This document shows, piece by piece, positions 4,732 through 64,000 of a stretch of 64,000 bases of DNA. The stretch comes from an uncultured Erysipelotrichaceae bacterium (GTDB taxonomy: Bacteria > Bacillota_I > Bacilli_A > Erysipelotrichales > Erysipelotrichaceae), in contig OW818668.1 of assembly GCA_942493105.1 (NCBI GenBank), positions 894,106-958,105 of the forward strand, in the 5' to 3' direction. The notes under the pieces were generated by a model. It was not told the origin of the DNA, did no database searches, and was given only the letters and a program-made list of their open reading frames with translations. Both the position numbers and the translations under genes were made by a program. The first letter of the stretch is position 1, and each line of letters starts with the position of its first letter.

Positions 4732-5931
4732 CTAGTCTTCTAATGAATTGTTGTAGGTCTTGAGTTCATCAAATAATTGTTTAAAAACCACTTCCAACCG
4801 ATCTTCGTTTTCTTGATCGTCTTGCATAGCATATATGGTTTGTCTAACACGGATGTTCATCATTTTTCGAAGTAAAAGAGTTTTGTAATCTTCATCATTA
4901 ACATCATATACCTGTTCCAATACCACAAGCAAATATGGTAGTACCGTTTTATACTCAGGACGATAGAGTTGATAATTGGCTGCAAACAAATAATAGAAAT
5001 CAATTTCTCCGTATTGAACAGTATTTGTTAGCATCAAGTTCAAAAACTCTTGATTTCTACCTAACAATAGATAAGCATTTAAGTATTGTGTCATGACCAA
5101 AGCTTTAGCATCTTCAGGATCTCTGATTGATGAAAGATTCGCAAAAGATTCCATCCCATATAAATCTGCTCGTCCACTATCTTCACGAAGTTCATAAATT
5201 AGTTTGAGTACTTCATCATCTTTCAAAGCAAGGGGCAAATAGGTAATTCTTTCTTCATAACTTCGATAATTTATAAGGTCTATTGTTAATTTAGCTAAAT
5301 TTTCAGAACTGGGTTCCTCATTATAAGAGTATATTTCATAACGAATACGCCATTCAGAGCTGAAGATTAAAACTACTGCAAATCCAACAAATGGAAGGAT
5401 AAACATTAGAAAAGAAATGGTGCTGATCTTGAAAGTTCGTCTTAGGAATTTAATTGTTCTTGGAAAACGCAACTTTTTAGATGCTTGATAAGAAAGTTCA
5501 TGGTTTTCTTTAGAGATGATCCAATGATTGTATATTAAGACCGTCACATGAATGGCGAAGGTATAGATGAGAATGTTAAATAATAAGAACCTAATCAAAA
5601 CAGGTAAATTATAGTTATGTTGTCTAAATAAAAAGGATGTTGGTAACAAGCCAATATAAACAAGTGGGGGCATGAAAATATATAGAACCTTATTCTTAAT
5701 TATGTTTAGTTTCTTGTTGGTCATTACGATGACCGTTATCATATAGGAAAACATCCCAATTAAGATAGTAAATAAATAATCAAATGGAATCATCCTTGGC
5801 CAAAGGGCTTCTTTAAAAGTCAAAAAAATTACCGCTGCGGGTCCACCAACCACATAAAGCCAGAATAATATTTTCTTGAGCATAAAAAACCTCTCTGATA
5901 TCATTCTACTCAAATATAAGAACCTTTTCAA
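4732..5931 (-). CDS. hypothetical polytopic membrane protein with C-terminal helical soluble domain
   Basis: N-terminal ~190 aa carries multiple TM segments and the C-terminal ~200 aa is hydrophilic; 4-nt overlap with the upstream HD gene suggests an operon. Confidence 0.4.
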   Translation of the reverse strand: MKRFLYLSRMISERFFMLKKILFWLYVVGGPAAVIFLTFKEALWPRMIPFDYLFTILIGMFSYMITVIVMTNKKLNIIKNKVLYIFMPPLVYIGLLPTSFLFRQHNYNLPVLIRFLLFNILIYTFAIHVTVLIYNHWIISKENHELSYQASKKLRFPRTIKFLRRTFKISTISFLMFILPFVGFAVVLIFSSEWRIRYEIYSYNEEPSSENLAKLTIDLINYRSYEERITYLPLALKDDEVLKLIYELREDSGRADLYGMESFANLSSIRDPEDAKALVMTQYLNAYLLLGRNQEFLNLMLTNTVQYGEIDFYYLFAANYQLYRPEYKTVLPYLLVVLEQVYDVNDEDYKTLLLRKMMNIRVRQTIYAMQDDQENEDRLEVVFKQLFDELKTYNNSLED

Positions 5932-6626
5932 TCTGCTTTACTAAAGTTTGGTGATTCGTAAAGTATTGTATTGGTTGCATTACATTCCTTCAATAATTCT
6001 TCCACATAATTGATCATGAATAAATATCTTTGATGACCAATTTGATTGGCTAAAGATGTGTTATAGTGTCCATCAAGTTTAAATAGCTTTTCATAAAAAT
6101 GATTGAGGCTGGTTGTATGCAGAGCTTTGTTTTTGTAATTTTCAGAACTTAGATTTTTTCGATAAGGGATTTCAGGGTTAAAGATCTCGCGACCATGGGC
6201 ACCACCAAACGCAAAAGCACGGGCTATTCCAATGGCCCCAACCGCATCTAAACGATCCGCATCTTGAACGATCTGTCCTTCTATGGTAGACATTGGACGA
6301 AGAACCTGACCTTTAAATGACATTGTTTCGATGATTTCAACCACGTGCTGAATCAATTTATTATCTACACCACAAGAAATCAACCAATCCTTTGCAGCTT
6401 TTGGACCCTTGATTTCATCATTTGATGATTTATAGTCATAAATATCATGTAAGGTAGAAGCTAATATTACCACTTCCATATTCACTTCTTGTGTTTCTGA
6501 TTGTGCTAAGCGAATAGCCATATCGATGACTCTTTGCGTATGCCACCAATCATGACCAGTGGCTTCTTTCTCAAGCAACCTCCTAGCATAACTCATTGTC
6601 TTCTCGATGATTGTTTCCATAGTCAC
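5928..6626 (-). CDS. HD-domain phosphohydrolase (YedJ-like)
   Basis: H..HT..V plus LHDI motifs typical of the HD superfamily. Confidence 0.7.
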   Translation of the reverse strand: MTMETIIEKTMSYARRLLEKEATGHDWWHTQRVIDMAIRLAQSETQEVNMEVVILASTLHDIYDYKSSNDEIKGPKAAKDWLISCGVDNKLIQHVVEIIETMSFKGQVLRPMSTIEGQIVQDADRLDAVGAIGIARAFAFGGAHGREIFNPEIPYRKNLSSENYKNKALHTTSLNHFYEKLFKLDGHYNTSLANQIGHQRYLFMINYVEELLKECNATNTILYESPNFSKAD

Positions 6627-6842
6627 CTCAATACTTCTATTATAGGCTATGTAACTACCACAATGAACTGAACTTCATGTTTCATCAAACCCATCAATAT
6701 TCACCAAAATTTTAAATTTTAGGTCAAAATTTTAATTATGGTAAATTTGTGGGATTATCACTGTCTGAACACTGTAGGGGGTGGATTTGTTATAATGAAA
6801 ACAGAAAATCTATCGTGGTATAGATTTGCGAGAGGACCTCAT

Positions 6843-7721
6843 ATGAAAAATATAGCGACTTTCTCCATCGTAGCCAGAGACCCTGAAACAGGTGAAATCG
6901 GGATTGCTGTTCAATCTAAATTTTTGGCTGTAGGATCTGCTGTTCCTTGGGCAAAAGCCAACGTTGGTGGAATCGCGACTCAGGCCATGGCTAACCTTGA
7001 GTTTGGGACAGTTGGACTGGATTTGCTTGAGAAAGGTTACACTGCTCAAAAAGTATTGGAATCACTAAAAGCCAGGGATAACCATATCGAAGATCGGCAA
7101 TTTGGGATCGTAGATTCCAAAGGTGGAGCTGTTACTTTTACAGGTAAAAATTGCTTCGATTATGCAGGAGGTATCGCTCAAGAAAATCTAGCGTGTCAAG
7201 GCAACATATTGGTTTCTGCTGAAACGATTGAAGCCATGGTTAAGACCTACAGATTGACCCAGGGGACCTTAGCGAATCGCTTGGTCAAAGCCCTGGATGC
7301 TGGTCAAAACGCTGGTGGTGACCGCAGAGGTCGCCAATCTGCTGCTTTATTGATTGTTAAACAAGGGGGCAGTTATGGTGGGTATAATGATCGATACATG
7401 GATCTTAGAGTAGATGATGATCCTCAACCCATTAAGAAACTAATGAAGCTTGTTAAACTTCATGAGATCTATTTTAATAAAACAAGAGAAGAAGATAAAG
7501 TCGTGGTTGATTCTAAAGGTGCAGATCAGATTCAAAAGGCACTCAAGAAATGTGGATACTATAAAGGTCCTTTTACTCAAGAATTTGATACAGAAACCAT
7601 AAAGGCATATAATGATTTTTGTGGTTGGGAGAACTTTGAAGAACGCATCAACGAAGGTAATATTGTCGATAAAAATGTTTTAAAATTCTTGTTGAGAAAA
7701 GCCAAGCGAATCATCGAATAA
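6843..7721 (+). CDS. DUF1028 (Ntn-hydrolase fold) protein with C-terminal peptidoglycan-binding-like domain
   Basis: ATFSIVARDPETGEIGIAVQS is a typical DUF1028 N-terminus and the C-terminus resembles a PG_binding_1 repeat. The track ORF begins at 6738; ATG 6843 or 6795 is a more plausible start. Confidence 0.55.
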   Translation: MKNIATFSIVARDPETGEIGIAVQSKFLAVGSAVPWAKANVGGIATQAMANLEFGTVGLDLLEKGYTAQKVLESLKARDNHIEDRQFGIVDSKGGAVTFTGKNCFDYAGGIAQENLACQGNILVSAETIEAMVKTYRLTQGTLANRLVKALDAGQNAGGDRRGRQSAALLIVKQGGSYGGYNDRYMDLRVDDDPQPIKKLMKLVKLHEIYFNKTREEDKVVVDSKGADQIQKALKKCGYYKGPFTQEFDTETIKAYNDFCGWENFEERINEGNIVDKNVLKFLLRKAKRIIE

Positions 7722-15751: not shown

Positions 15752-16034
15752 CTTTGAATATATTATACATAAATAGGAGTTTTTTTAGAAACGTTGATTT
15801 CCAATAGATAACTTTATTCATAAATCATGTCTCAGTATGAATAAAAAATGTGGTGAAATTTGCGTGCATGAGTCTTACAGGTCTGTTTTTTTTAGAGGAC
15901 TTGTGATAGAGTATAGGCATGTTACGGAGGTGGCTATGAACTTAAATTTGAATGATCTGACCCATGACGTAACAAACATCTTTATAGCATAAGCCTTACT
16001 GCGCTTGTGTTTTTTATTTTATGACAACTGAATA

Positions 16035-16103
16035 TTTTGTATAACTGCAGAAATACGGTCTGCAAGTCTCTACCCTGACACCATAAACGTTGGGACTACA
16101 AAA
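16035..16103 (+). promoter_or_regulatory. purine (guanine-type) riboswitch aptamer
   Basis: P1 ttttgta / tacaaaa; conserved J2-3 tctctacc; P3 region ccataaacgttgggac; C at the specificity position (gggaCtac). Confidence 0.8.
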
Positions 16104-16139
16104 TCAAAATGAGCTGCCAAGCTGTTTTTTGGTTTTTAT

Positions 16140-16167
16140 GAGACATCCAACCGGGTGTCTTTTTGTA
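16140..16167 (+). terminator. riboswitch expression-platform terminator
   Basis: agacatcc-aacc-gggtgtct hairpin followed by TTTTT immediately before the purE RBS. Confidence 0.7.
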
Positions 16168-52034: not shown

Positions 52035-53012
52035 ATGCTTAATGTTGGTATCGTAGGAACAGGTATGATCAGTGAATCGTTTGTTAAGGCAGCCCATCAA
52101 CTCAGTGAAGTCAAAGTCATCGCGATTCAAAGTCGCACAATGGAATCTGCTTTAGAGTTTGCTAAACAACATCAAATTGAAAAGGCATATGACAGTTACG
52201 AATTGATGTTGAAAGATGAAGAAATTGATACGATCTACATTGGTTTACCAAACAGTCTACATTTCGACTATGGGATCAAAGCTTTAAAAGCCCATAAGAC
52301 CACCATCTTAGAAAAACCTTTCTTATCCAATATGAAAGAATATGATGCTTTGATGGCTGTCTCACGTGAATTCAAAACCCGTGTCTTTGAGATGAACCGT
52401 GTCCTTCAACTCCCAAATTTTAAAGTCATCCAAGACCATTTAAAAGACATCGAACCTGTTAGTATGATCACCATGAACTTCAGTCAATACTCTCGCAAAT
52501 ATAATGATTATTTGGCTGGCAGGATCCTTAATGTCTTCTCAGATGAATATTCTGGAGGTGCTTTAGTAGATTTAGGGGTCTATGCGGTTCACTTCCTGGT
52601 GGGCTTATTTGGGTCTCCTAAAGAGCTGACTTATATTGCCTCACTACTGCCCAATACGATCGATGTGGGAGGTAACTTGATCTTAAAATACGATGGCTTT
52701 ATCGCCAGTGTCGTACAAAGTAAGAACTCTAAATGTGATAATCGTATTTGTATCCAAGGAGAAAAAGGAACGATCTATGCCTCTCCTACAGCCTCAGCTT
52801 TACGTAAAGTAGAACTGGATACCACAGAAAAGAAAGACATCACTTTACCTCATGACCTAGAAGGTATGGCATATACTTTAAAAGATATCAACGACATCGT
52901 TGAAACAAACAACGAAGCATTATATCAAATCCGAGTTGAACAATCGCTTAAAGTCATGGAAGTTTTAGTTAAAGCAAGACAAAGTGCAGGAATCGTTTTC
53001 AAAGCTGATTAG
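52035..53012 (+). CDS. Gfo/Idh/MocA-family NAD(P) oxidoreductase
   Basis: VGIVGTGMI Rossmann N-terminus. Confidence 0.8.
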   Translation: MLNVGIVGTGMISESFVKAAHQLSEVKVIAIQSRTMESALEFAKQHQIEKAYDSYELMLKDEEIDTIYIGLPNSLHFDYGIKALKAHKTTILEKPFLSNMKEYDALMAVSREFKTRVFEMNRVLQLPNFKVIQDHLKDIEPVSMITMNFSQYSRKYNDYLAGRILNVFSDEYSGGALVDLGVYAVHFLVGLFGSPKELTYIASLLPNTIDVGGNLILKYDGFIASVVQSKNSKCDNRICIQGEKGTIYASPTASALRKVELDTTEKKDITLPHDLEGMAYTLKDINDIVETNNEALYQIRVEQSLKVMEVLVKARQSAGIVFKAD

Positions 53013-53027
53013 TAGATCCATGATATA

Positions 53028-53060
53028 TAAAAAACGGAATCTTAATAGATTCCGTTTTTA
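53028..53060. terminator. bidirectional terminator
   Basis: aaaaaacggaatc-ttaata-gattccgttttt. Confidence 0.8.
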
Positions 53061-53066
53061 GTACGA

Positions 53067-53333
53067 TTATTTAGTCACAGGTCTTTTAAAGATGTATTCA
53101 TCTCCGACATTATATCGATCATACTCTGTCTGATTTTTAACTTTGATGGTAGCCTCAAAGTCTCCATCCATCCCTGTAATTTTGTATGTCACATAAAAAT
53201 AATATTGATTGGAACTAACAACTTCCTTATTGACGATGATGCTTTTTGTATCCACAGTTTTAGGACTACCAGAACACCCACCAATCAATAAAACACCTAT
53301 AACCAATACAGAAATCAAGATGAGCTTTTTCAA
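53067..53333 (-). CDS. small lipoprotein
   Basis: Signal peptide with LIGGCSGS lipobox. Confidence 0.45.
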   Translation of the reverse strand: MKKLILISVLVIGVLLIGGCSGSPKTVDTKSIIVNKEVVSSNQYYFYVTYKITGMDGDFEATIKVKNQTEYDRYNVGDEYIFKRPVTK

Positions 53334-53464
53334 AGGTTTATTCCTTTCGTTAATCTAATAATAGCACCATCATCATGAAAAACTACGAAAAATAGTGATG
53401 ATTTTTTAAAGTAAAAAGGATTGTTTTTCTCAACAAACTTGTACCTTTTCACTAGATGTTTACT

Positions 53465-53956
53465 CTATTTATTCTTGAATATTTGAATATAACCTCTAAA
53501 TAAAATCACAATAGCGGCCAGTATATACAGATAGCGATCATTGGAATATGCATATTGAGTAAAACTCAAATAAACAACAACACCTGCCAATAACACATAG
53601 AAAGCACCATTAAAGATCTTACTGTTGAGACTGGTGGGTACTTTGAGCTTCACATCAGCCACTTTATAGTTTTTTAGCTTCGTTAATTTATTGATGAAAA
53701 TAAATCGATAATATAATTCTACGATGATGGTCAATCCAACTAGGAAGACAGCATCATAGATCAAATCAAAACCCAAGGCATAAAAGAAAACCGAGGCTAC
53801 CAAGACAATAGTGTAGCGATTTCTAAAAAAGAACAAGCTTGTCATTTGATCTAAAGGAATCACATAGGCTGCATTTTCTTTTGGGATAGGTAAGATATAT
53901 CTTCCGTTTTTTTCTTTTATAACGCCCATCGATTCTATTGTTTTAGTGGATATCAT
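53465..53956 (-). CDS. hypothetical membrane protein
   Basis: Three to four TM helices; no recognisable family. Confidence 0.35.
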   Translation of the reverse strand: MISTKTIESMGVIKEKNGRYILPIPKENAAYVIPLDQMTSLFFFRNRYTIVLVASVFFYALGFDLIYDAVFLVGLTIIVELYYRFIFINKLTKLKNYKVADVKLKVPTSLNSKIFNGAFYVLLAGVVVYLSFTQYAYSNDRYLYILAAIVILFRGYIQIFKNK

Positions 53957-54143
53957 AACTCACCTCAGCATTCATTATATCTTAAATATAACCTTAATTC
54001 TATGCATATATATACAAGCGGTGAACTTGATTTTAGTGCTATAATGAGTTCAAAAGAGGATAGTGGGAACAATCATACTTTTAAGCATTTATGATCGATC
54101 ATGATTCAAGTTTTTAAACAATCATGATCAGAAAGGTATTAAA

Positions 54144-54968: not shown

Positions 54969-55316
54969 ATGAACAAATATAAGATGATCGTTTATACAAT
55001 GAAACAAGGTGACTCCGAGGAATATGTTGCGGAGTATCCTGCTTTAAAAGGGGTTGCTGGAGTTGGATCAAGTCCATTTGAAGCAATCGAAAATTTAATG
55101 GAAAGTGCTGAGGTCAATGTTGCAGCGCTAATTGAAGCAGGTCTTCTTGTTCCAGAAAGTGATTCACAAACAAGAAATGAATACAGCGGCAAACTATCTG
55201 TACGATTATCAAGTAAGTTACATAGGATGGTTGCGGAGCTTTCGAAACAAGAAGGTGTTAGTATCAATCAATGTATTGTTGAAGCTGTTTCAATGTATGT
55301 AGGCAAGGTATATTAG
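54969..55316 (+). CDS. HicB-family antitoxin-like protein (RNase-H-like N-domain + RHH DNA-binding C-domain), no HicA partner seen
   Basis: YVAEYPALKGVAGVGSSPFEAIENL is typical of HicB, and the C-terminus SGKLSVRLSSKLHRMVAELSKQEGVSINQ is RHH-like. Confidence 0.6.
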   Translation: MNKYKMIVYTMKQGDSEEYVAEYPALKGVAGVGSSPFEAIENLMESAEVNVAALIEAGLLVPESDSQTRNEYSGKLSVRLSSKLHRMVAELSKQEGVSINQCIVEAVSMYVGKVY

Positions 55317-55321
55317 TAGAA

Positions 55322-56206
55322 CTAAATTCCCAACTCATTGAATGTTAAAGACTCTGATATGCGGGTATAGATCCTTTTTTCATGAGTAGATTCATGAGAA
55401 CTGAACTCATAGATGCCGATGAAACGGTATAACCTTCTCCCCAAAACATCTTTACTTCGTGCAAAGGTGATTCGCAAATAATTATCTTGTCTTTCAAGCC
55501 CTTCCATTTCATTTGGATCCAGGCGATACTCTAAGATTTTGTTTCGATTATCAGCTAAAACATTAAGCCAACCATGGCTACCCTGTGATCGCAACTCACC
55601 TTCTACAGTAGTTGCTAAATTTGGACACCAAATCCAATATTTTCCATTTAATTTGAAATATCCAGATTGTCTTTTAAAACGTACAAGACCAAATCCATTC
55701 GCAATCTCTTCGATGCGTCTAAAACGAATCTCATCTGAAACAGATAAATTTCTCTTCGTTTGTAATAATGTCGATGGGTTTTGATCAAAGTTCCATGCTG
55801 GAACTTTTGACAGTTGAATAATTGCTTTTAGTTCCGAAACAACAGAATTGATCTGCTGATCTACGTTTTCAAAACTTTGATCCAAATCAATTCTTCTTAA
55901 TATAAATTGTTTGGGTTCATCAAGGATTTCGATACTGGTTTGTATATCAAGCTGTCGGATCATATCCAAAGTGATTGTTGTCTTGTGATGAGGTTCATCG
56001 ACTTCTAACCCAAAATTGATTTGAGGAAAATACATATCTAGGAGTGCGTAACTACCATTGGTGCGCTTGATGTATTGTTGAGTAACAGGCTTGATATCTA
56101 GGTTTCCTAATCTCTGCCAAATCGCATTGACGACATAATTCTCATAGTCTTTCTTTTTAGTTCTAGATAACGTTTTGATTAAGTAGTCGAGTTTTAGATC
56201 AATCAT
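55322..56206 (-). CDS. Vsr/DUF559-like endonuclease-fold N-domain fused to an uncharacterised ~150-aa C-domain
   Basis: AIWQRL ... TQQYIKRTNGSYALLDMYFPQINFGLEVDEPHH follows the DUF559 consensus (W.aL ... RQ ... DFY.P ... IEvDG..H); 29 nt downstream of tnaA on the same strand. Confidence 0.5.
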   Translation of the reverse strand: MIDLKLDYLIKTLSRTKKKDYENYVVNAIWQRLGNLDIKPVTQQYIKRTNGSYALLDMYFPQINFGLEVDEPHHKTTITLDMIRQLDIQTSIEILDEPKQFILRRIDLDQSFENVDQQINSVVSELKAIIQLSKVPAWNFDQNPSTLLQTKRNLSVSDEIRFRRIEEIANGFGLVRFKRQSGYFKLNGKYWIWCPNLATTVEGELRSQGSHGWLNVLADNRNKILEYRLDPNEMEGLERQDNYLRITFARSKDVLGRRLYRFIGIYEFSSHESTHEKRIYTRISESLTFNELGI

Positions 56207-56235
56207 GGGTGTTTATCATAATTTCGTTTGTTTCA

Positions 56236-57621
56236 TTATAGTAATTCAAACCCTGCAGTAAAGTGTCTTAAGGATTGTATAGGTCCTTCATAGGTCAGCT
56301 TAAGACCCTTATAGGAGTCTCTGTTGGCGTAAATATCTCTTAAGGCATTGGCAATACAATCCATATGGTTATTGGTGTATACGCGTCTGGAAATGGCGAT
56401 ACGCATGGTTTCTAGTTCTGGCCAAACAGCTTCACCTGTCACAGGATCTTTGGATCCAAAAGCACAGGCACCTAACTCTACACAACGAATTCCAGCGAGT
56501 TCATATAAGGCAACAACCAATCTTTGAGAAGGGAATTCACTTTGTGGAATATGTGGGAAGAAACGTCTTCCATCGACATAAACTCCGTGTCCTCCAGTAG
56601 GTTCAATAATGGGGACACCCGCTTCTTTAAGTTTATTTCCCAGGTATTCAACTTGTTTGATTCGATACTCAAGATAATCATAATCACAGACTTCTTTTAA
56701 ACCAACCGCCAATGCATCTAAGTCTCTGCCAGCCAAGCCGCCATAGGTAATGAAGCCTTCATGGACGATGGCAAGCTGATTGGCCATTTGAAAGATGTTG
56801 AGTTTACGGGTTAAGAATAAACCACCTATATTGACTAAACCATCTTTCTTCGCACTCATCACGGCTGTTTCACAGTAAGATAAGGTTTCTAGAATAATGC
56901 TTTGAATAGAAGCATCCTTGAACTCTGCTTCTCTGGTTTTGATGAAGTAAGCATTCTCTGCGATACGAGCAATATCCATACACATTGGGATCTCATATTT
57001 TTGTGCCAAGGCTGCTGTTTCACGAATGTTTTTCATGGATACAGGTTGACCGCCATTGTTGTTGCAAGTGATTGTCAGCATGATCAAGCCAATGTTTTCT
57101 TTACCTTTGTCTAGAATAAAAGCTTCACAAGCTTTGATGTCTAGGTTACCTTTAAAGGCTTGTGGAGCACTGGAAGCATCTTTACCTGCTTCTATGACTA
57201 AATCTGCTACTTGTGCACCTAAGACTTCCGCATTGCCTCTAAAGGTATCAAAATGCATATTGCCTATGGCAATCTGTCCAGGTTTACAATAGATCTTCGC
57301 AATCAAATAATCGGCAGCTCTGCCTTGATGAACCGGTTGAACATAAGGCATATCAAAGACTTCATGAACACTCTTCTCAAGTCTGAAGTAACTGTCACAA
57401 CTGGCATAGGATTCATCACCCATCATCAAGGCTGCCCATTGATTCTTACTCATGGCGGAAGTACCGCTGTCGGTCAAGCAATCAATATAGACATTTTCAG
57501 CTTTGACTTTAAAGACATTGTATCCGGCTTCTTTAAGCCAGGCTCGTCTTTGATCAATGGTTGTCTTTTTGACGTGTTCAATCATTTTTATACGGAATGG
57601 TTCTGCGGTTTGATAGTTCAT
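56236..57621 (-). CDS. tnaA: tryptophanase / beta-eliminating lyase
   Basis: PLP-dependent tryptophanase family. ATG 57621 (MNYQTAEPFRIK) has a GGAG RBS; the track ORF is extended to 57639. Confidence 0.85.
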   Translation of the reverse strand: MNYQTAEPFRIKMIEHVKKTTIDQRRAWLKEAGYNVFKVKAENVYIDCLTDSGTSAMSKNQWAALMMGDESYASCDSYFRLEKSVHEVFDMPYVQPVHQGRAADYLIAKIYCKPGQIAIGNMHFDTFRGNAEVLGAQVADLVIEAGKDASSAPQAFKGNLDIKACEAFILDKGKENIGLIMLTITCNNNGGQPVSMKNIRETAALAQKYEIPMCMDIARIAENAYFIKTREAEFKDASIQSIILETLSYCETAVMSAKKDGLVNIGGLFLTRKLNIFQMANQLAIVHEGFITYGGLAGRDLDALAVGLKEVCDYDYLEYRIKQVEYLGNKLKEAGVPIIEPTGGHGVYVDGRRFFPHIPQSEFPSQRLVVALYELAGIRCVELGACAFGSKDPVTGEAVWPELETMRIAISRRVYTNNHMDCIANALRDIYANRDSYKGLKLTYEGPIQSLRHFTAGFELL

Positions 57622-57881
57622 ATGTGCTCCAGGGGTCAACTTAAGACCTGTTTACTTCCAATATTTAAGTACTATGCTACTAAGTTATGACAATAAATGA
57701 AGTTGGGCTGAAGTAGTTTAATAAGTTATAGCCTTTTACTTTATCTTAGAGTGATAATAAACCAAGTTCTTTAAGTGCTCCTTCTAAAACGATCATGGTG
57801 AATTTTGTTGGAAGTCAGTTCATTTCAATCATTTCAAATCAACTTGAGGATGTCCAGCAAAAAAACCACTGGGATTCAAAT

Positions 57882-58042
57882 ATACTTTATCTACTATAAA
57901 AGCATCGACTCGTGTTGAACATTGTGTAAAGAGTCTAGCTAAAGTATCTTGCATAGCGAGCGGTTGCCATACAGTACGGGTTCTTACTCATAAGAGCTTC
58001 CTCTCCAACTTTGGAGATCCTTGTTGATTTTATTATAACTGA
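57882..58042 (-). repeat. direct repeat copy 1 (~160 nt): -10-like box, palindromic 5' UTR, RBS and degraded short ORF
   Basis: Aligns by eye to 61594..61757. The minus strand reads TATAAT ... ggatctccaaagttggagaggaagctctt-ATG with an 18-codon ORF (MSKNPYCMATARYARYFS). Confidence 0.7.
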
Positions 58043-58164
58043 TAGGGTTAGTAGTTCTAACATTGTTTAATATAAACAAGGAATAATAATGAATTTAAGT
58101 GAAGATTCATGAGGATTTGAAATGGTGTTTTAAGTGGTTTCTTTGAAGACTAAGCATTGATTGT

Positions 58165-61399: not shown

Positions 61400-61593
61400 T
61401 AGTCGCAATCAAGCATTTCTGTCTAAAAATAAACTAAAAACGATAAATTTACTGAGAAGTTTGCATAACGTTATATTTCATCAAATCATTTTTAATGAAT
61501 TTTCTCGATGATACCCACATTTGAATAGGTCGACTTTTTTATCGTCACAATGTGAAAGTTGTATGTGTAAAAATAAAAGACTATTCCACCTAA

Positions 61594-61757
61594 TACACTT
61601 TATCTACGACAAAAGCAACGACCTCGATTTGATCATTGTGTAAAGAGTCCAGATAAAGCATCTTGCATAGCGAGCGGTTGCCATACAGTACGGTTTTCTT
61701 ACTCATAAGAGCTTCCTCTCCAACTTTGGAGATCCTTGTTGATTTTATTTTAACTGA
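61594..61757 (-). repeat. direct repeat copy 2 (~164 nt) with a 38-aa ORF (61590..61706, minus)
   Basis: MSKKTVLYGNRSLCKMLYLDSLHNDQIEVVAFVVDKVY preceded by GGAGAGGAAG. This N-terminus resembles NeuD/PglD-type sugar acetyltransferase starts, but the ORF stops after 38 codons. Confidence 0.6.
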
Positions 61758-62101
61758 AAGACTAAAGGAAACTCAAAAACCCATTCTCAAAAATGCATGA
61801 TTATATTTTTGGTTTCATGTAATAAAAAATCGTAACTGAATAAATATCTATAAAGCGTGGTTAATAAGCGAAGTATTGCATTATACGTTAATGTTTAAAA
61901 ATTCTGCAGATGTATCTAAACTCAACCAAAAACTTGATTAAGTATGCTTTTTACTGATATCATAAATATACGAGAATTGTTTAATTTAAATGACTGAATA
62001 CTATCTTATGTAGATCAAAAAACTCGTATCTATACAATCAATGCTTATTAAATTGAGAAAATTGTATACATTCAGTTTGTTAAATATTGTGGGGTAATAC
62101 A

Positions 62102-64000
62102 ATGGTTAGGAAAGAGCCGATTTATTATCATTTGATCTTTGGGTCACTTCAGTGTAAAGAGACTTTTGGGGTTGATCTTTTATATGGTGACTACGAGTAT
62201 ATTATCAACCTCAATTCATCACTAATTAGTAAACTTTATTTTGAGAATTACAGTGAAGTAAAAACATATTATTGCAGTGAACTAATCAATAAATCAGAAT
62301 ATGAAGAACTAACACTTCTGGAATACACATTTCATAATAAAAAAGCTTTTGATTTATTACACAATCTAGCAGAAAGGCTACTTTTTCGTAATGAGGTTCA
62401 ATATCTGTTTCTATGTATCGATTGCTTGTGGGTTATTGATAAATTACTAGGTTTTTATGATTTAGTTGATGAGTCTGTGTACTTAACTGTCAACTCTCGT
62501 TTAAAAAATGAGTATGATGTAGATCTTAGGTTCCACTATGCACTAACTTTTACAAGATATAAATATTTAAACGAAATGATTGCGATCGAAACAAGAAAAA
62601 AATTCAAAATTGAAAAGCTTATTCGTACTGCAATTACCACCATCGCTATCGCACATTCAATAGCAGAAGCGTTTAGACCGAATTTATACAAAATTGGGTT
62701 TCGTATTCTTGAACAAATCGATACAATTGAACTTCAAAAAATAGTTAATGAGGATAATCTGAAAACGATTATTAACGAAATATTACAATCTACTGTTTCG
62801 ATCAATGAAGATGCTTTAAATTTTTATGTAACAAGACGGCTAAGTTTGAAACTAGATATGACGTTAGGTAAAAACCTCCCAAACAAAATCAAGATTAACT
62901 ACATTCAAGATAACTTAGATTTTGTATCAGCTTTAATTAAAGGCAAGATTCCTCAATCTTTTATTGCATTACAAAAAATCCTTGAAATTCTTGAAAATGA
63001 CAGAATTGAGGACTTAGGTGAGAAATATAAATATCATAATTTTAATATAGGATCTTTGGTAATATATTTATTAAAGATTGATAATAGTTACACCATTATA
63101 AGACTCTTTACAGTTCTTAAAATAATTGAGTTTGACCAGATGTATAAAGTCTGGGATCAATCAATAGGGTCAAATTATCTTGATCTATGTTATAACTATT
63201 TAATATACAAATCAAAGACCGAAAAACACTTTAAATTAAGTAAGAATGATAAAACGTGGTTGCTATGCCTTTTAAAAGCGTTAAGGAGCGAAAATGATTT
63301 GACTCAACCAGTTGATAGAATAGTTTTTTTGTTTAATAATATTGACTTCCTTTCCATTGATATGGAGACCATTATAGAAATATGCAAACATATTTATGAC
63401 ACTGAAAAATATAAATCAACACACGATAGTATTCAATTGGCGCTAGAAGCTAGACAGTATGAACTTGTCAAATACCTAGATGCAAATAGGGAAGTAATTG
63501 ATTTACTTGTTTCTAAATTCAATATTGAAAAACTTAATAAAACCAAACGATTTGTGATTATGAGACAACTTGAAAAGAATTGTGAGAGATACTTTTCTCA
63601 AATTCAAGATAGTCCTTTGGGCTATAAGATAATTGTTGCTCGAAATGCGAATGATATTCAAAAACATCAGCGTACATGTTTGTATATTGATCAGATAAAA
63701 TACATGATGAGAGAGCTAAAGGTTAGAAATATCACAGATCTTTTCCATTTCACACCAATTGATAATCTTGCGAGTATTCTTGAAAAAGGAATTATACCCA
63801 GAAGTTATCACAGACAACTAAAAGTTCGGTCTATTTGTACAGATTCTGAACGTTATGATCATAGATTGGAATACACTAGTTTATCAATAATGAGGCCGAA
63901 TAGTAGAATGCTTTACTATAAGAGGGCTGAAAAGATTATAGTGATTTTAAGGATTGATGCTCAGATTTTGCTTAATGTAACGAACCATCCGTTATTCTTT
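62102..64000 (+). CDS. large hypothetical protein (>633 aa, 3' end outside window) with C-terminal DarT-like DUF4433 ADP-ribosyltransferase domain
   Basis: Open frame 62102 to window end, absent from the ORF track because no stop lies in the window. The C-terminus LFHFTPIDNLASILEKGII ... RPNSRMLYY parallels the DarT hFThi.NL.sIL..G ... RsPMLYai motifs; AT-rich codon usage. Confidence 0.6.
   Translation, partial: MVRKEPIYYHLIFGSLQCKETFGVDLLYGDYEYIINLNSSLISKLYFENYSEVKTYYCSELINKSEYEELTLLEYTFHNKKAFDLLHNLAERLLFRNEVQYLFLCIDCLWVIDKLLGFYDLVDESVYLTVNSRLKNEYDVDLRFHYALTFTRYKYLNEMIAIETRKKFKIEKLIRTAITTIAIAHSIAEAFRPNLYKIGFRILEQIDTIELQKIVNEDNLKTIINEILQSTVSINEDALNFYVTRRLSLKLDMTLGKNLPNKIKINYIQDNLDFVSALIKGKIPQSFIALQKILEILENDRIEDLGEKYKYHNFNIGSLVIYLLKIDNSYTIIRLFTVLKIIEFDQMYKVWDQSIGSNYLDLCYNYLIYKSKTEKHFKLSKNDKTWLLCLLKALRSENDLTQPVDRIVFLFNNIDFLSIDMETIIEICKHIYDTEKYKSTHDSIQLALEARQYELVKYLDANREVIDLLVSKFNIEKLNKTKRFVIMRQLEKNCERYFSQIQDSPLGYKIIVARNANDIQKHQRTCLYIDQIKYMMRELKVRNITDLFHFTPIDNLASILEKGIIPRSYHRQLKVRSICTDSERYDHRLEYTSLSIMRPNSRMLYYKRAEKIIVILRIDAQILLNVTNHPLFF

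Follow-up and report, generated by a model that had tools for sequence, protein, structure and literature searches.

A divergent member of the PvuRts1I/AbaSI family of restriction endonucleases that depend on DNA modification, encoded by a one-gene cassette downstream of tryptophanase in an uncultured Erysipelotrichaceae bacterium

Introduction

Restriction endonucleases of the PvuRts1I/AbaSI family are classed as Type IIM enzymes by REBASE and PADLOC, and are treated as type-IV-like in many papers. Crystal structures are available for PvuRts1I, encoded on plasmid Rts1 of Proteus vulgaris (PDB entries 4OQ2 and 4OKY), and for AbaSI of Acinetobacter baumannii (4PAR, 4PBA and 4PBB). The roles of the domains are known from the structures of AbaSI (PMC4081097) and PvuRts1I (PMC4027163): a Vsr-like nuclease domain is combined with an SRA-like reader domain, and the N-terminal helices form the dimer interface in AbaSI. 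When AbaSI was superposed on Vsr, its residues D61, E26 and V73 coincided with D51, E25 and T63 of the latter, respectively (PMC4081097). AbaSI's catalytic site is composed of K23, E26, D61, E72, the main-chain carbonyl of V73, D74, E75, H77 and H78 (PMC4081097), and that of PvuRts1I of K17, E20, D57, E68, D70 and E71 (PMC4027163). Activity is lost in alanine mutants of the catalytic residues of both enzymes, and is abolished by mutation of K23, D61, E75 or H78 in AbaSI and of E20, D57 or E71 in PvuRts1I (PMC4081097, PMC4027163). The modified base is accommodated in a pocket, which in AbaSI comprises W224, P226, W234, N236, E247, R269 and W304, with Q209 acting from the minor groove. BbiDI, BmeDI and other homologues belong to the same family, and about 20 of these proteins, including those of Gram-positive bacteria, are all dimeric and selective for 5-hydroxymethylcytosine (5hmC) or its glucosylated form (ghmC) (Borgaro and Zhu 2013, PMC3627594). 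Published work on about 20 homologues describes Mg2+-dependent cleavage of DNA with 5hmC or ghmC, and not of DNA with C or 5mC, approximately N11-13/N9-10 being the usual distance in the family.

Two further groups of enzymes need to be considered as relatives in architecture or fold. MspJI, LpnPI and AspBHI, as well as the SRA-HNH enzymes TagI and ScoA3IV, combine an SRA-like base-flipping reader with a non-specific nuclease of fixed cutting distance, as is predicted for the protein described below. Nevertheless, MspJI and LpnPI have their domains in the opposite order, the nuclease of TagI is of the HNH type, and in these enzymes Asp takes the place of the pocket Asn and the target is 5-methylcytosine (5mC) in a sequence context. 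Vsr and DUF559 proteins, on the other hand, appear to have the catalytic fold and the D...E-x-D...H register in common with the PvuRts1I/AbaSI family, but they lack the SRA domain, and Vsr nicks T:G mismatches.

Here we analyse a gene found in a stretch of 64,000 nucleotides (hereafter, the window) from the genome assembly of an uncultured Erysipelotrichaceae bacterium. A first-pass annotation, made from the sequence alone, had proposed that the gene encodes a Vsr/DUF559-like endonuclease domain fused to an unknown C-terminal domain, in an odd pairing with the gene for tryptophanase. We conclude that the product is very probably a stand-alone, modification-dependent endonuclease of the PvuRts1I/AbaSI family, acting as the characterised members do. 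The protein is accordingly of a kind already known, from a family that has been both characterised and crystallised, and is a fairly divergent new member of it.

Results and Discussion

Gene, domains and predicted structure

The gene extends from position 55322 to 56206 on the reverse strand of the window. According to the list of open reading frames (ORFs) and a check of the sequence, it is an intact ORF of 294 amino acids starting with ATG, and all peptide strings quoted in the first-pass annotation were recovered in its translation. In Pfam searches, residues 6-125 (55832..56191, reverse strand) matched PvuRts1I-like_N (PF21598) at 1.4e-38 (132.5 bits; cutoff, 27), and residues 149-288 (55343..55762, reverse strand) matched SRA (PF18491) at 2.5e-24 (86.3 bits; cutoff, 30.2); both matches exceed the gathering scores of the respective families. 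Together with the helices of the structural model, the former match delimits a Vsr-like cleavage domain at the N-terminus, of the atypical PD-(D/E)XK type. The latter, in line with weak Foldseek matches to SRA domains, marks a C-terminal domain predicted to be SRA-like and to bind modified cytosine. The C-terminal half is hence a Pfam SRA domain, not a domain of an unknown kind as had been supposed. The nuclease precedes the SRA domain, and the total of 294 residues lies within the length typical of the family (approximately 290-320 amino acids). The proposal that a Vsr-like nuclease and an SRA-like reader make up a modification-dependent restriction enzyme agrees with the architecture published for PvuRts1I and AbaSI.

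Searches with the full-length protein led to the same family. The PADLOC model mREase_II ('Type II methyl-directed restriction enzyme') matched at 1.6e-57, aligning residues 4-290 of the protein with positions 3-287 of the 294 in the profile. Phmmer against PDB sequences detected AbaSI (4PAR, 1.7e-28), which is the best match, and PvuRts1I (4OQ2 and 4OKY, 1.3e-23) in end-to-end alignments, and no other proteins. No model was matched in an NCBIfam search of the protein. Relatives are named 'AbaSI family restriction endonuclease' by NCBI, which uses this name for the prototype gene of plasmid Rts1 (NC_003905) as well, and 'very-short-patch-repair endonuclease' by the automatic annotation of JGI. 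The protein is approximately 25-32% identical to the two crystallised enzymes (about 26-32% to AbaSI and 25-30% to PvuRts1I), and differs from AbaSI in a longer hairpin, which is described below, and a shorter linker region. The gene is chromosomal and lies in a low-GC genome, whereas that of PvuRts1I is carried by a conjugative enterobacterial plasmid.

The first-pass annotation had recommended both profile searches of the two halves, the outcome of which is given above, and a search with a predicted structure. An AlphaFold2 model calculated from 72 relatives reached a mean pLDDT of 86.9 and a pTM of 0.82. The best five Foldseek matches of this model in the PDB were chains of PvuRts1I and AbaSI (4OQ2, 4OKY and 4PAR), aligned over the full length with E values of around 1e-22 and TM scores of 0.71-0.76 (0.73-0.76 for PvuRts1I), and the next match had an E value of 6e-3 only. 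The weaker matches included the SRA domains of LpnPI, KRYPTONITE and SUVH9, as well as the DUF559-like structure 3HRL at E 0.21. Two N-terminal helices (residues 4-13 and 20-33) are present in the model.

The family is large. A word-indexed search yielded 248 homologues at E<=1e-5; among the 120 matches listed, all carry the N-terminal domain and all but one, a truncated entry of 178 amino acids, carry both domains. An exhaustive search yielded 711 representatives of 50%-identity clusters at E<=1e-3, 485 of which at E<=1e-10. The nearest relative, on a single metagenomic contig (L015), is 69% identical, and the next ones among the matches listed are at most 49% identical; the best relative in the genome collection, from a metagenome-assembled genome of Erysipelotrichia, shares 45% identity. 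Other members reside on conjugative enterobacterial plasmids, on plasmids of Paenibacillus and Priestia, and in phages of Streptococcus suis.

Catalytic site and base pocket

All residues validated in the characterised enzymes are conserved in the protein. The catalytic core, D57 ... E68-V69-D70-E71-P-H73-H74, is encoded at 55985..56038, and K19 and E22, which complete the catalytic site by alignment to AbaSI K23 and E26, at 56141-56152 (both on the reverse strand). K19, E22, D57, E68, V69, D70, E71, H73 and H74 occupy the catalytic positions of AbaSI and PvuRts1I; for the latter, the catalytic K, E, D, ExDE and HH all have equivalents. The base-pocket residues W193, P195, W213, N215 and E226 are encoded at 55529..55630 on the reverse strand, and R245, Y280 and Q180 (the minor-groove Gln) fall outside this span. 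The eight residues W193, P195, W213, N215, E226, R245, Y280 and Q180 were aligned to AbaSI W224, P226, W234, N236, E247, R269, W304 and Q209, respectively, and the PvuRts1I counterparts of its pocket W, P, W, N, E and R in the alignment are W205, P207, W215, N217, E228 and R244. Identical counterparts were found for AbaSI K23, E26, D61, E72, D74, E75, H77, H78, W224, W234, N236, E247, R269 and Q209. Two tryptophans of the '4W' pocket of AbaSI are not kept: W262 corresponds to E238, or to a gap region, and W304 to Y280, which is also the situation in most relatives. W262, in helix alpha-G of AbaSI, has no conserved equivalent in the protein, and its position is variable family-wide. The pocket thus has the Asn, not the Asp, together with the two Trp, the Glu, the Arg and the minor-groove Gln by which the family is recognised.

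These residues are also preserved among relatives. K19, E22, D57, E68, E71 and H74 are invariant across 72 to 116 relatives, and Q43, W138, W193, P195 and N215 are likewise invariant in the alignment of 72 relatives, in which conservation is 90% or higher at D70, W213, E226, R245, Y260 and Y280. All residues supported by mutation are kept, and there is no sign of an inactivated copy.

A longer hairpin between the pocket tryptophans

The sole distinctive feature of the protein is a hairpin approximately 10 residues longer than its counterpart in the crystallised enzymes. The longer W193-W213 connection (residues 196-212; 55571..55621, reverse strand), identified by the alignment and the model, is modelled as a beta-hairpin with putative strands at residues 199-201 and 204-206, in a block of lower confidence (pLDDT ~75). 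The segment from W193 to W213 consists of 21 amino acids in the protein, compared with 11 in AbaSI, PvuRts1I and a homologue on a Priestia megaterium plasmid. It is 20-22 amino acids long in 84 of the 116 sequences compared, making the long connection the majority state among the sampled relatives, and 16 amino acids long in another 24, a class that includes members from Bifidobacterium and Adlercreutzia.

The slot downstream of tnaA

Upstream, in the same orientation, lies a gene that can be read at 56236..57639 from a TTG, and more likely starts at 57621 from the first ATG. It matched Beta_elim_lyase in Pfam at 8.6e-71, and its named relatives at approximately 70-72% identity are nearly all tryptophanases; we refer to it as tnaA. 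On the other side, a convergent gene at 54969..55316 (forward strand) encodes a HicB-like protein (PF05534, 7.4e-10 in Pfam). This HicB is an orphan, as had been noted previously, since the ORF list contains no ORF of at least 40 amino acids beside 54969-55316 that could be HicA.

Comparison with syntenic relatives demonstrated that the endonuclease gene is a one-gene cassette. Two relatives, L016 and L017, carry a 96%-identical tnaA, the GFO/CpsB/ADH/GntR/HAD/amidohydrolase block, the 216-amino-acid gene and HicB of the window, and both lack the endonuclease gene. In blastn between the window and L016, homology covers 57630-56230 (90%) and 55306-54036 (79%), and the 923 bp between the two blocks (55307..56229) are replaced by 690 bp with an unrelated ORF of 146 amino acids on the other strand. 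Since L016 retains HicB while lacking the endonuclease gene, the two genes are independent of each other. In L015, where the endonuclease gene does follow tnaA, the DNA of the tnaA end shares 83-92% identity with the window (96% for the protein), compared with approximately 73% (69% for the protein) in the case of the endonuclease gene; homology to the window stops at the stop codon of the latter, and an AbiEi-like gene stands in place of HicB. Close relatives of tnaA (84-90%) are followed by Abi_2, by AbiEii and DUF6577, by Nramp, or by unrelated genes, and are preceded by AbiEi/AbiEii pairs, an IS30-like transposase, or PLD-DUF3427, NUDIX, SLFN-helicase and MazG genes.

Family members elsewhere keep different company. 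Neither tnaA nor HicB lies near a family member in any of the eight genomes compared, and three further homologues were found in a prophage next to MmeI and a ParB-methyltransferase, next to a type I restriction-modification system, and in a defence island holding HNH, PLD-DUF3427 and reverse transcriptase genes. The GC content of the endonuclease gene (0.36) is close to the window mean (0.375), with no clear compositional mark of a recent transfer. The endonuclease gene is a cassette in a fast-turning variable slot downstream of tnaA, a site at which defence genes are swapped.

Transcription of the endonuclease gene

The gap of 29 nucleotides between the tnaA stop codon and the ATG of the endonuclease gene (56207..56235, reverse strand) was confirmed. 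Inspection of this gap revealed no evident Shine-Dalgarno sequence before the ATG, and a promoter/terminator scan of 54.8-58.7 kb no terminator-like site in it. The RNA fold of the junction was unremarkable against shuffled sequences (z-score -0.38), giving no stable hairpin. In L015, the only in-frame ATG of the endonuclease gene overlaps the tnaA stop codon (TAATG). The absent terminator, the unremarkable fold and this overlap favour read-through, and transcription of the endonuclease gene from tnaA is therefore plausible. We also considered a TTTACT-16-TATAAT match that ends at 56235 and overlaps the tnaA stop codon as a promoter of the gene itself, and rejected it, as such sites are no commoner in the 54.8-58.7 kb region than in shuffled sequences. 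In the 1-kb region upstream of tnaA, Rfam returned sub-threshold noise only. Across the whole window, the sole Rfam match was a purine riboswitch.

Alternative interpretations

As relatives bear the name 'very-short-patch-repair endonuclease' in JGI, the gene might be regarded as one for a repair nickase of the Vsr/DUF559 type. The N-terminal domain is indeed probably Vsr-like in fold, and hhalign of the family profile with the DUF559 protein YcjD of E. coli paired D57, E68, D70 and H74 with the D/E/D/H motif of the latter, the acidic residues included, albeit at a non-significant E of 0.17. Nevertheless, the same comparison with E. coli Vsr found nothing relevant (E 0.31, on an unrelated region), and the N-terminal domain alone, searched against Pfam at E<=10, matched only PF21598 and neither DUF559 (PF04480) nor Vsr (PF03852). 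The likeness to Vsr is structural: the earlier label 'Vsr/DUF559-like' appears to hold for the motif register and the superfamily, and not for membership in either Pfam family, the domain having a family of its own in PF21598. With a full SRA reader domain, an end-to-end match to restriction endonucleases, and no Dcm-type methyltransferase among the neighbouring genes examined, we see virtually no chance that the protein is a repair nickase. A less radical alternative retains the family and the mechanism and changes the target, to 5mC or another glycosylated or hypermodified hmC, or the cut distance, as in BmeDI. The 21-residue W193-W213 connection would fit such a change, as would N196 at the position of AbaSI R227, and family members are known to differ strongly in their preference for alpha- or beta-glucosyl groups, with BmeDI cutting at N2-3/N0-1 (PMC3627594). 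This variation, together with the close-cutting outlier, makes a variant in specificity or geometry possible, though unsupported. R227 of AbaSI, however, works through its main chain only, and the hairpin is neither Loop-F8 nor Loop-12G, the loops described as contacting DNA in AbaSI. Moreover, conservation of N215, E226, W193, W213, R245 and Q180 argues for the same read-out of the cytosine edge and a large pocket. We regard a changed target or cut distance as unlikely, and prefer an endonuclease acting as the characterised members do.

The remaining alternatives concern the context of the gene. The first-pass annotation had pointed to the odd pairing with tryptophanase, and the endonuclease could be its functional partner in an operon with a shared role, for instance, in an indole-linked regulation of restriction. 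The two genes are on the same strand with the short gap and no terminator between them, and their adjacency recurs in L015, the nearest relative. In L016, however, with its 96%-identical tnaA and a matching set of flanking genes, the slot is filled by the unrelated 146-amino-acid gene, and next to other close relatives of tnaA it is taken by Abi_2, AbiEii, Nramp or further genes. tnaA was found near a family member in none of eight genomes and none of three metagenome contigs, and even in L015 the endonuclease gene is less similar to that of the window than is the tnaA end. We thus rejected a functional operon, with eight genomes with family members, three homologue contexts and six sets of contexts of tnaA relatives against it. 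Such a partnership is exceedingly improbable, and the pairing seems, judging from the gene contexts, to have no evident physiological meaning; its oddity results from the entry of a one-gene cassette into a variable slot. Alternatively, the gene might be a silent or decaying relic, neither expressed nor active. Its expression may be low given that no Shine-Dalgarno sequence was recognised, the convergent HicB gene ends 5 nucleotides from the stop codon of the endonuclease gene with no terminator between the two, and the slot turns over rapidly. Against this, the ORF is intact and of a length typical of the family, all invariant family residues are kept, and the structure was modelled with confidence. 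A relic is very unlikely on these grounds, and we continue with an intact, modification-dependent endonuclease carried as a cassette.

Proposed mechanism

We infer the activity of the endonuclease, its preference among substrates (hmC or the alpha- or beta-glucosylated forms of it) and its cut distance by analogy with the characterised members. The protein would form a homodimer held together by the two N-terminal helices. Each SRA-like domain would enter the DNA from the minor groove via Q180, and 5hmC or glucosyl-5hmC would be flipped into the pocket. There, the base would be stacked by W193 and W213, its cytosine Watson-Crick edge read by N215 and E226, and its 5-substituent faced by R245 and Y280. 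D57, E71 and the carbonyl of V69 are the putative ligands of Mg2+, with E68 and D70, plus K19 and H74, as probable helpers. The paired Vsr-like domains would cut both strands approximately 11-13/9-10 nucleotides 3' of the modified base, and cutting would be best between two cytosines spaced by approximately 21-22 bp.

The predicted targets are invading phage DNAs with hydroxymethylated or glycosylated cytosines. No partner methyltransferase would be needed in this case, because the host DNA lacks 5hmC. The neighbours scanned between 47 and 64 kb encode metabolic and membrane proteins, HicB, tryptophanase, and Zn-ribbon, SPFH/GYF and DarT-like proteins, and no methyltransferase was matched among them. 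Among these neighbours, PADLOC recognised DarT only, in an AT-rich ORF at 62.1 kb.

Implications

It may be attractive to speculate that the long-hairpin proteins make up a large and apparently uncharacterised group within the family, in which the hairpin could retune the recognition of hypermodified cytosine or the geometry of cleavage, and that the 3' flank of tnaA in this lineage is a dedicated hot spot for the exchange of single defence genes (alleles of the endonuclease gene, AbiE, Abi_2 and unknown ORFs). We consider this combination rather improbable. If it is true, the target might, for instance, be a glycosyl-hmC of a non-T4 type, carried by phages that infect low-GC anaerobes.

The gene as such carries little fundamental weight, as the literature already covers the family together with its fold, the residues of its catalytic site and pocket, and its biology, and annotation pipelines already name the relatives. 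PvuRts1I-family enzymes are in use as reagents for mapping 5hmC (Aba-seq), and members vary in their selectivity for hmC, alpha-ghmC and beta-ghmC; a divergent member with a long hairpin could therefore have a useful selectivity. The locus also illustrates how the turnover of cassettes at a defence hot spot can bring about an odd pairing of genes. We know of no phage with hmC-containing DNA for the low-GC host, and the presence of this gene hints at encounters of the host lineage with phages whose cytosine is hydroxymethylated or glycosylated.

Variable segments beside the restriction enzyme gene

The segment between tnaA (tryptophanase gene) and HicB, which holds the PvuRts1I/AbaSI-family restriction enzyme gene in the window, is filled in L016, a syntenic relative without the enzyme, by an unannotated 146-aa ORF that has no Pfam or PADLOC match. 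In L016 (8479-9420 of that locus) this ORF comes after HicB, on the HicB strand. The homology between the window and L016 breaks within the final codons of HicB (54969-55316, plus strand), and the C-terminus of the protein is therefore unlike between the two loci. We found no HicA partner beside the window HicB. The region of 53000-54035 (GC ~0.32), with one lipoprotein-like ORF (88 aa) and one membrane ORF (163 aa), is absent from L016, which has ~92 bp in its place; it is a second indel in this neighbourhood.

Upstream of tnaA, we noticed a direct repeat of ~170 nt, the two copies of which (57879-58045 and 61592-61760) are 87-97% identical and lie 3714 nt apart. The copies enclose three genes, encoding a Zn-ribbon membrane protein, an SPFH+GYF_2 protein and a GYF_2 protein, and each copy, read on the minus strand, looks like a Shine-Dalgarno sequence with an 'MSK...' gene stub. 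The repeat may be a scar of rearrangement or integration just upstream of tnaA.

Far from this region, a purine riboswitch was detected at 16017-16118 on the plus strand (Rfam RF00167, 72 bits). The run of plus-strand ORFs starting at 16155, directly downstream, is, at a guess, a purine-biosynthesis operon.

Defence-type genes and the setting of tryptophanase

A large ORF of at least 632 aa (62102-64000, plus strand) lies in a markedly AT-rich region (GC 0.27-0.31) and runs off the window end. Its C-terminal part matches DarT, a toxin that ADP-ribosylates thymidine in single-stranded DNA, in Pfam at 1.9e-5 (24.9 bits, which exceeds the cutoff) and in PADLOC at 8e-5; its N-terminal 547 residues matched nothing. 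With the restriction enzyme gene 6 kb away, this is the second gene of defence type here.

The MAG contig DAINAU010000054.1 (locus L005) has two PvuRts1I-family paralogues in tandem, at 4892-5785 and 6001-6855, which share 33% and 35% identity with the window enzyme. As a pair, they could complement each other in alpha- and beta-glucosyl specificity.

In the loci of tnaA relatives (L016-L024), the genes around tnaA include AbiEi/AbiEii pairs, Abi_2, an IS30-like transposase, PLD-DUF3427, and SLFN-like or DUF2726 helicases. Given these variable, defence-rich surroundings, tryptophanase may be part of an accessory island in this lineage.
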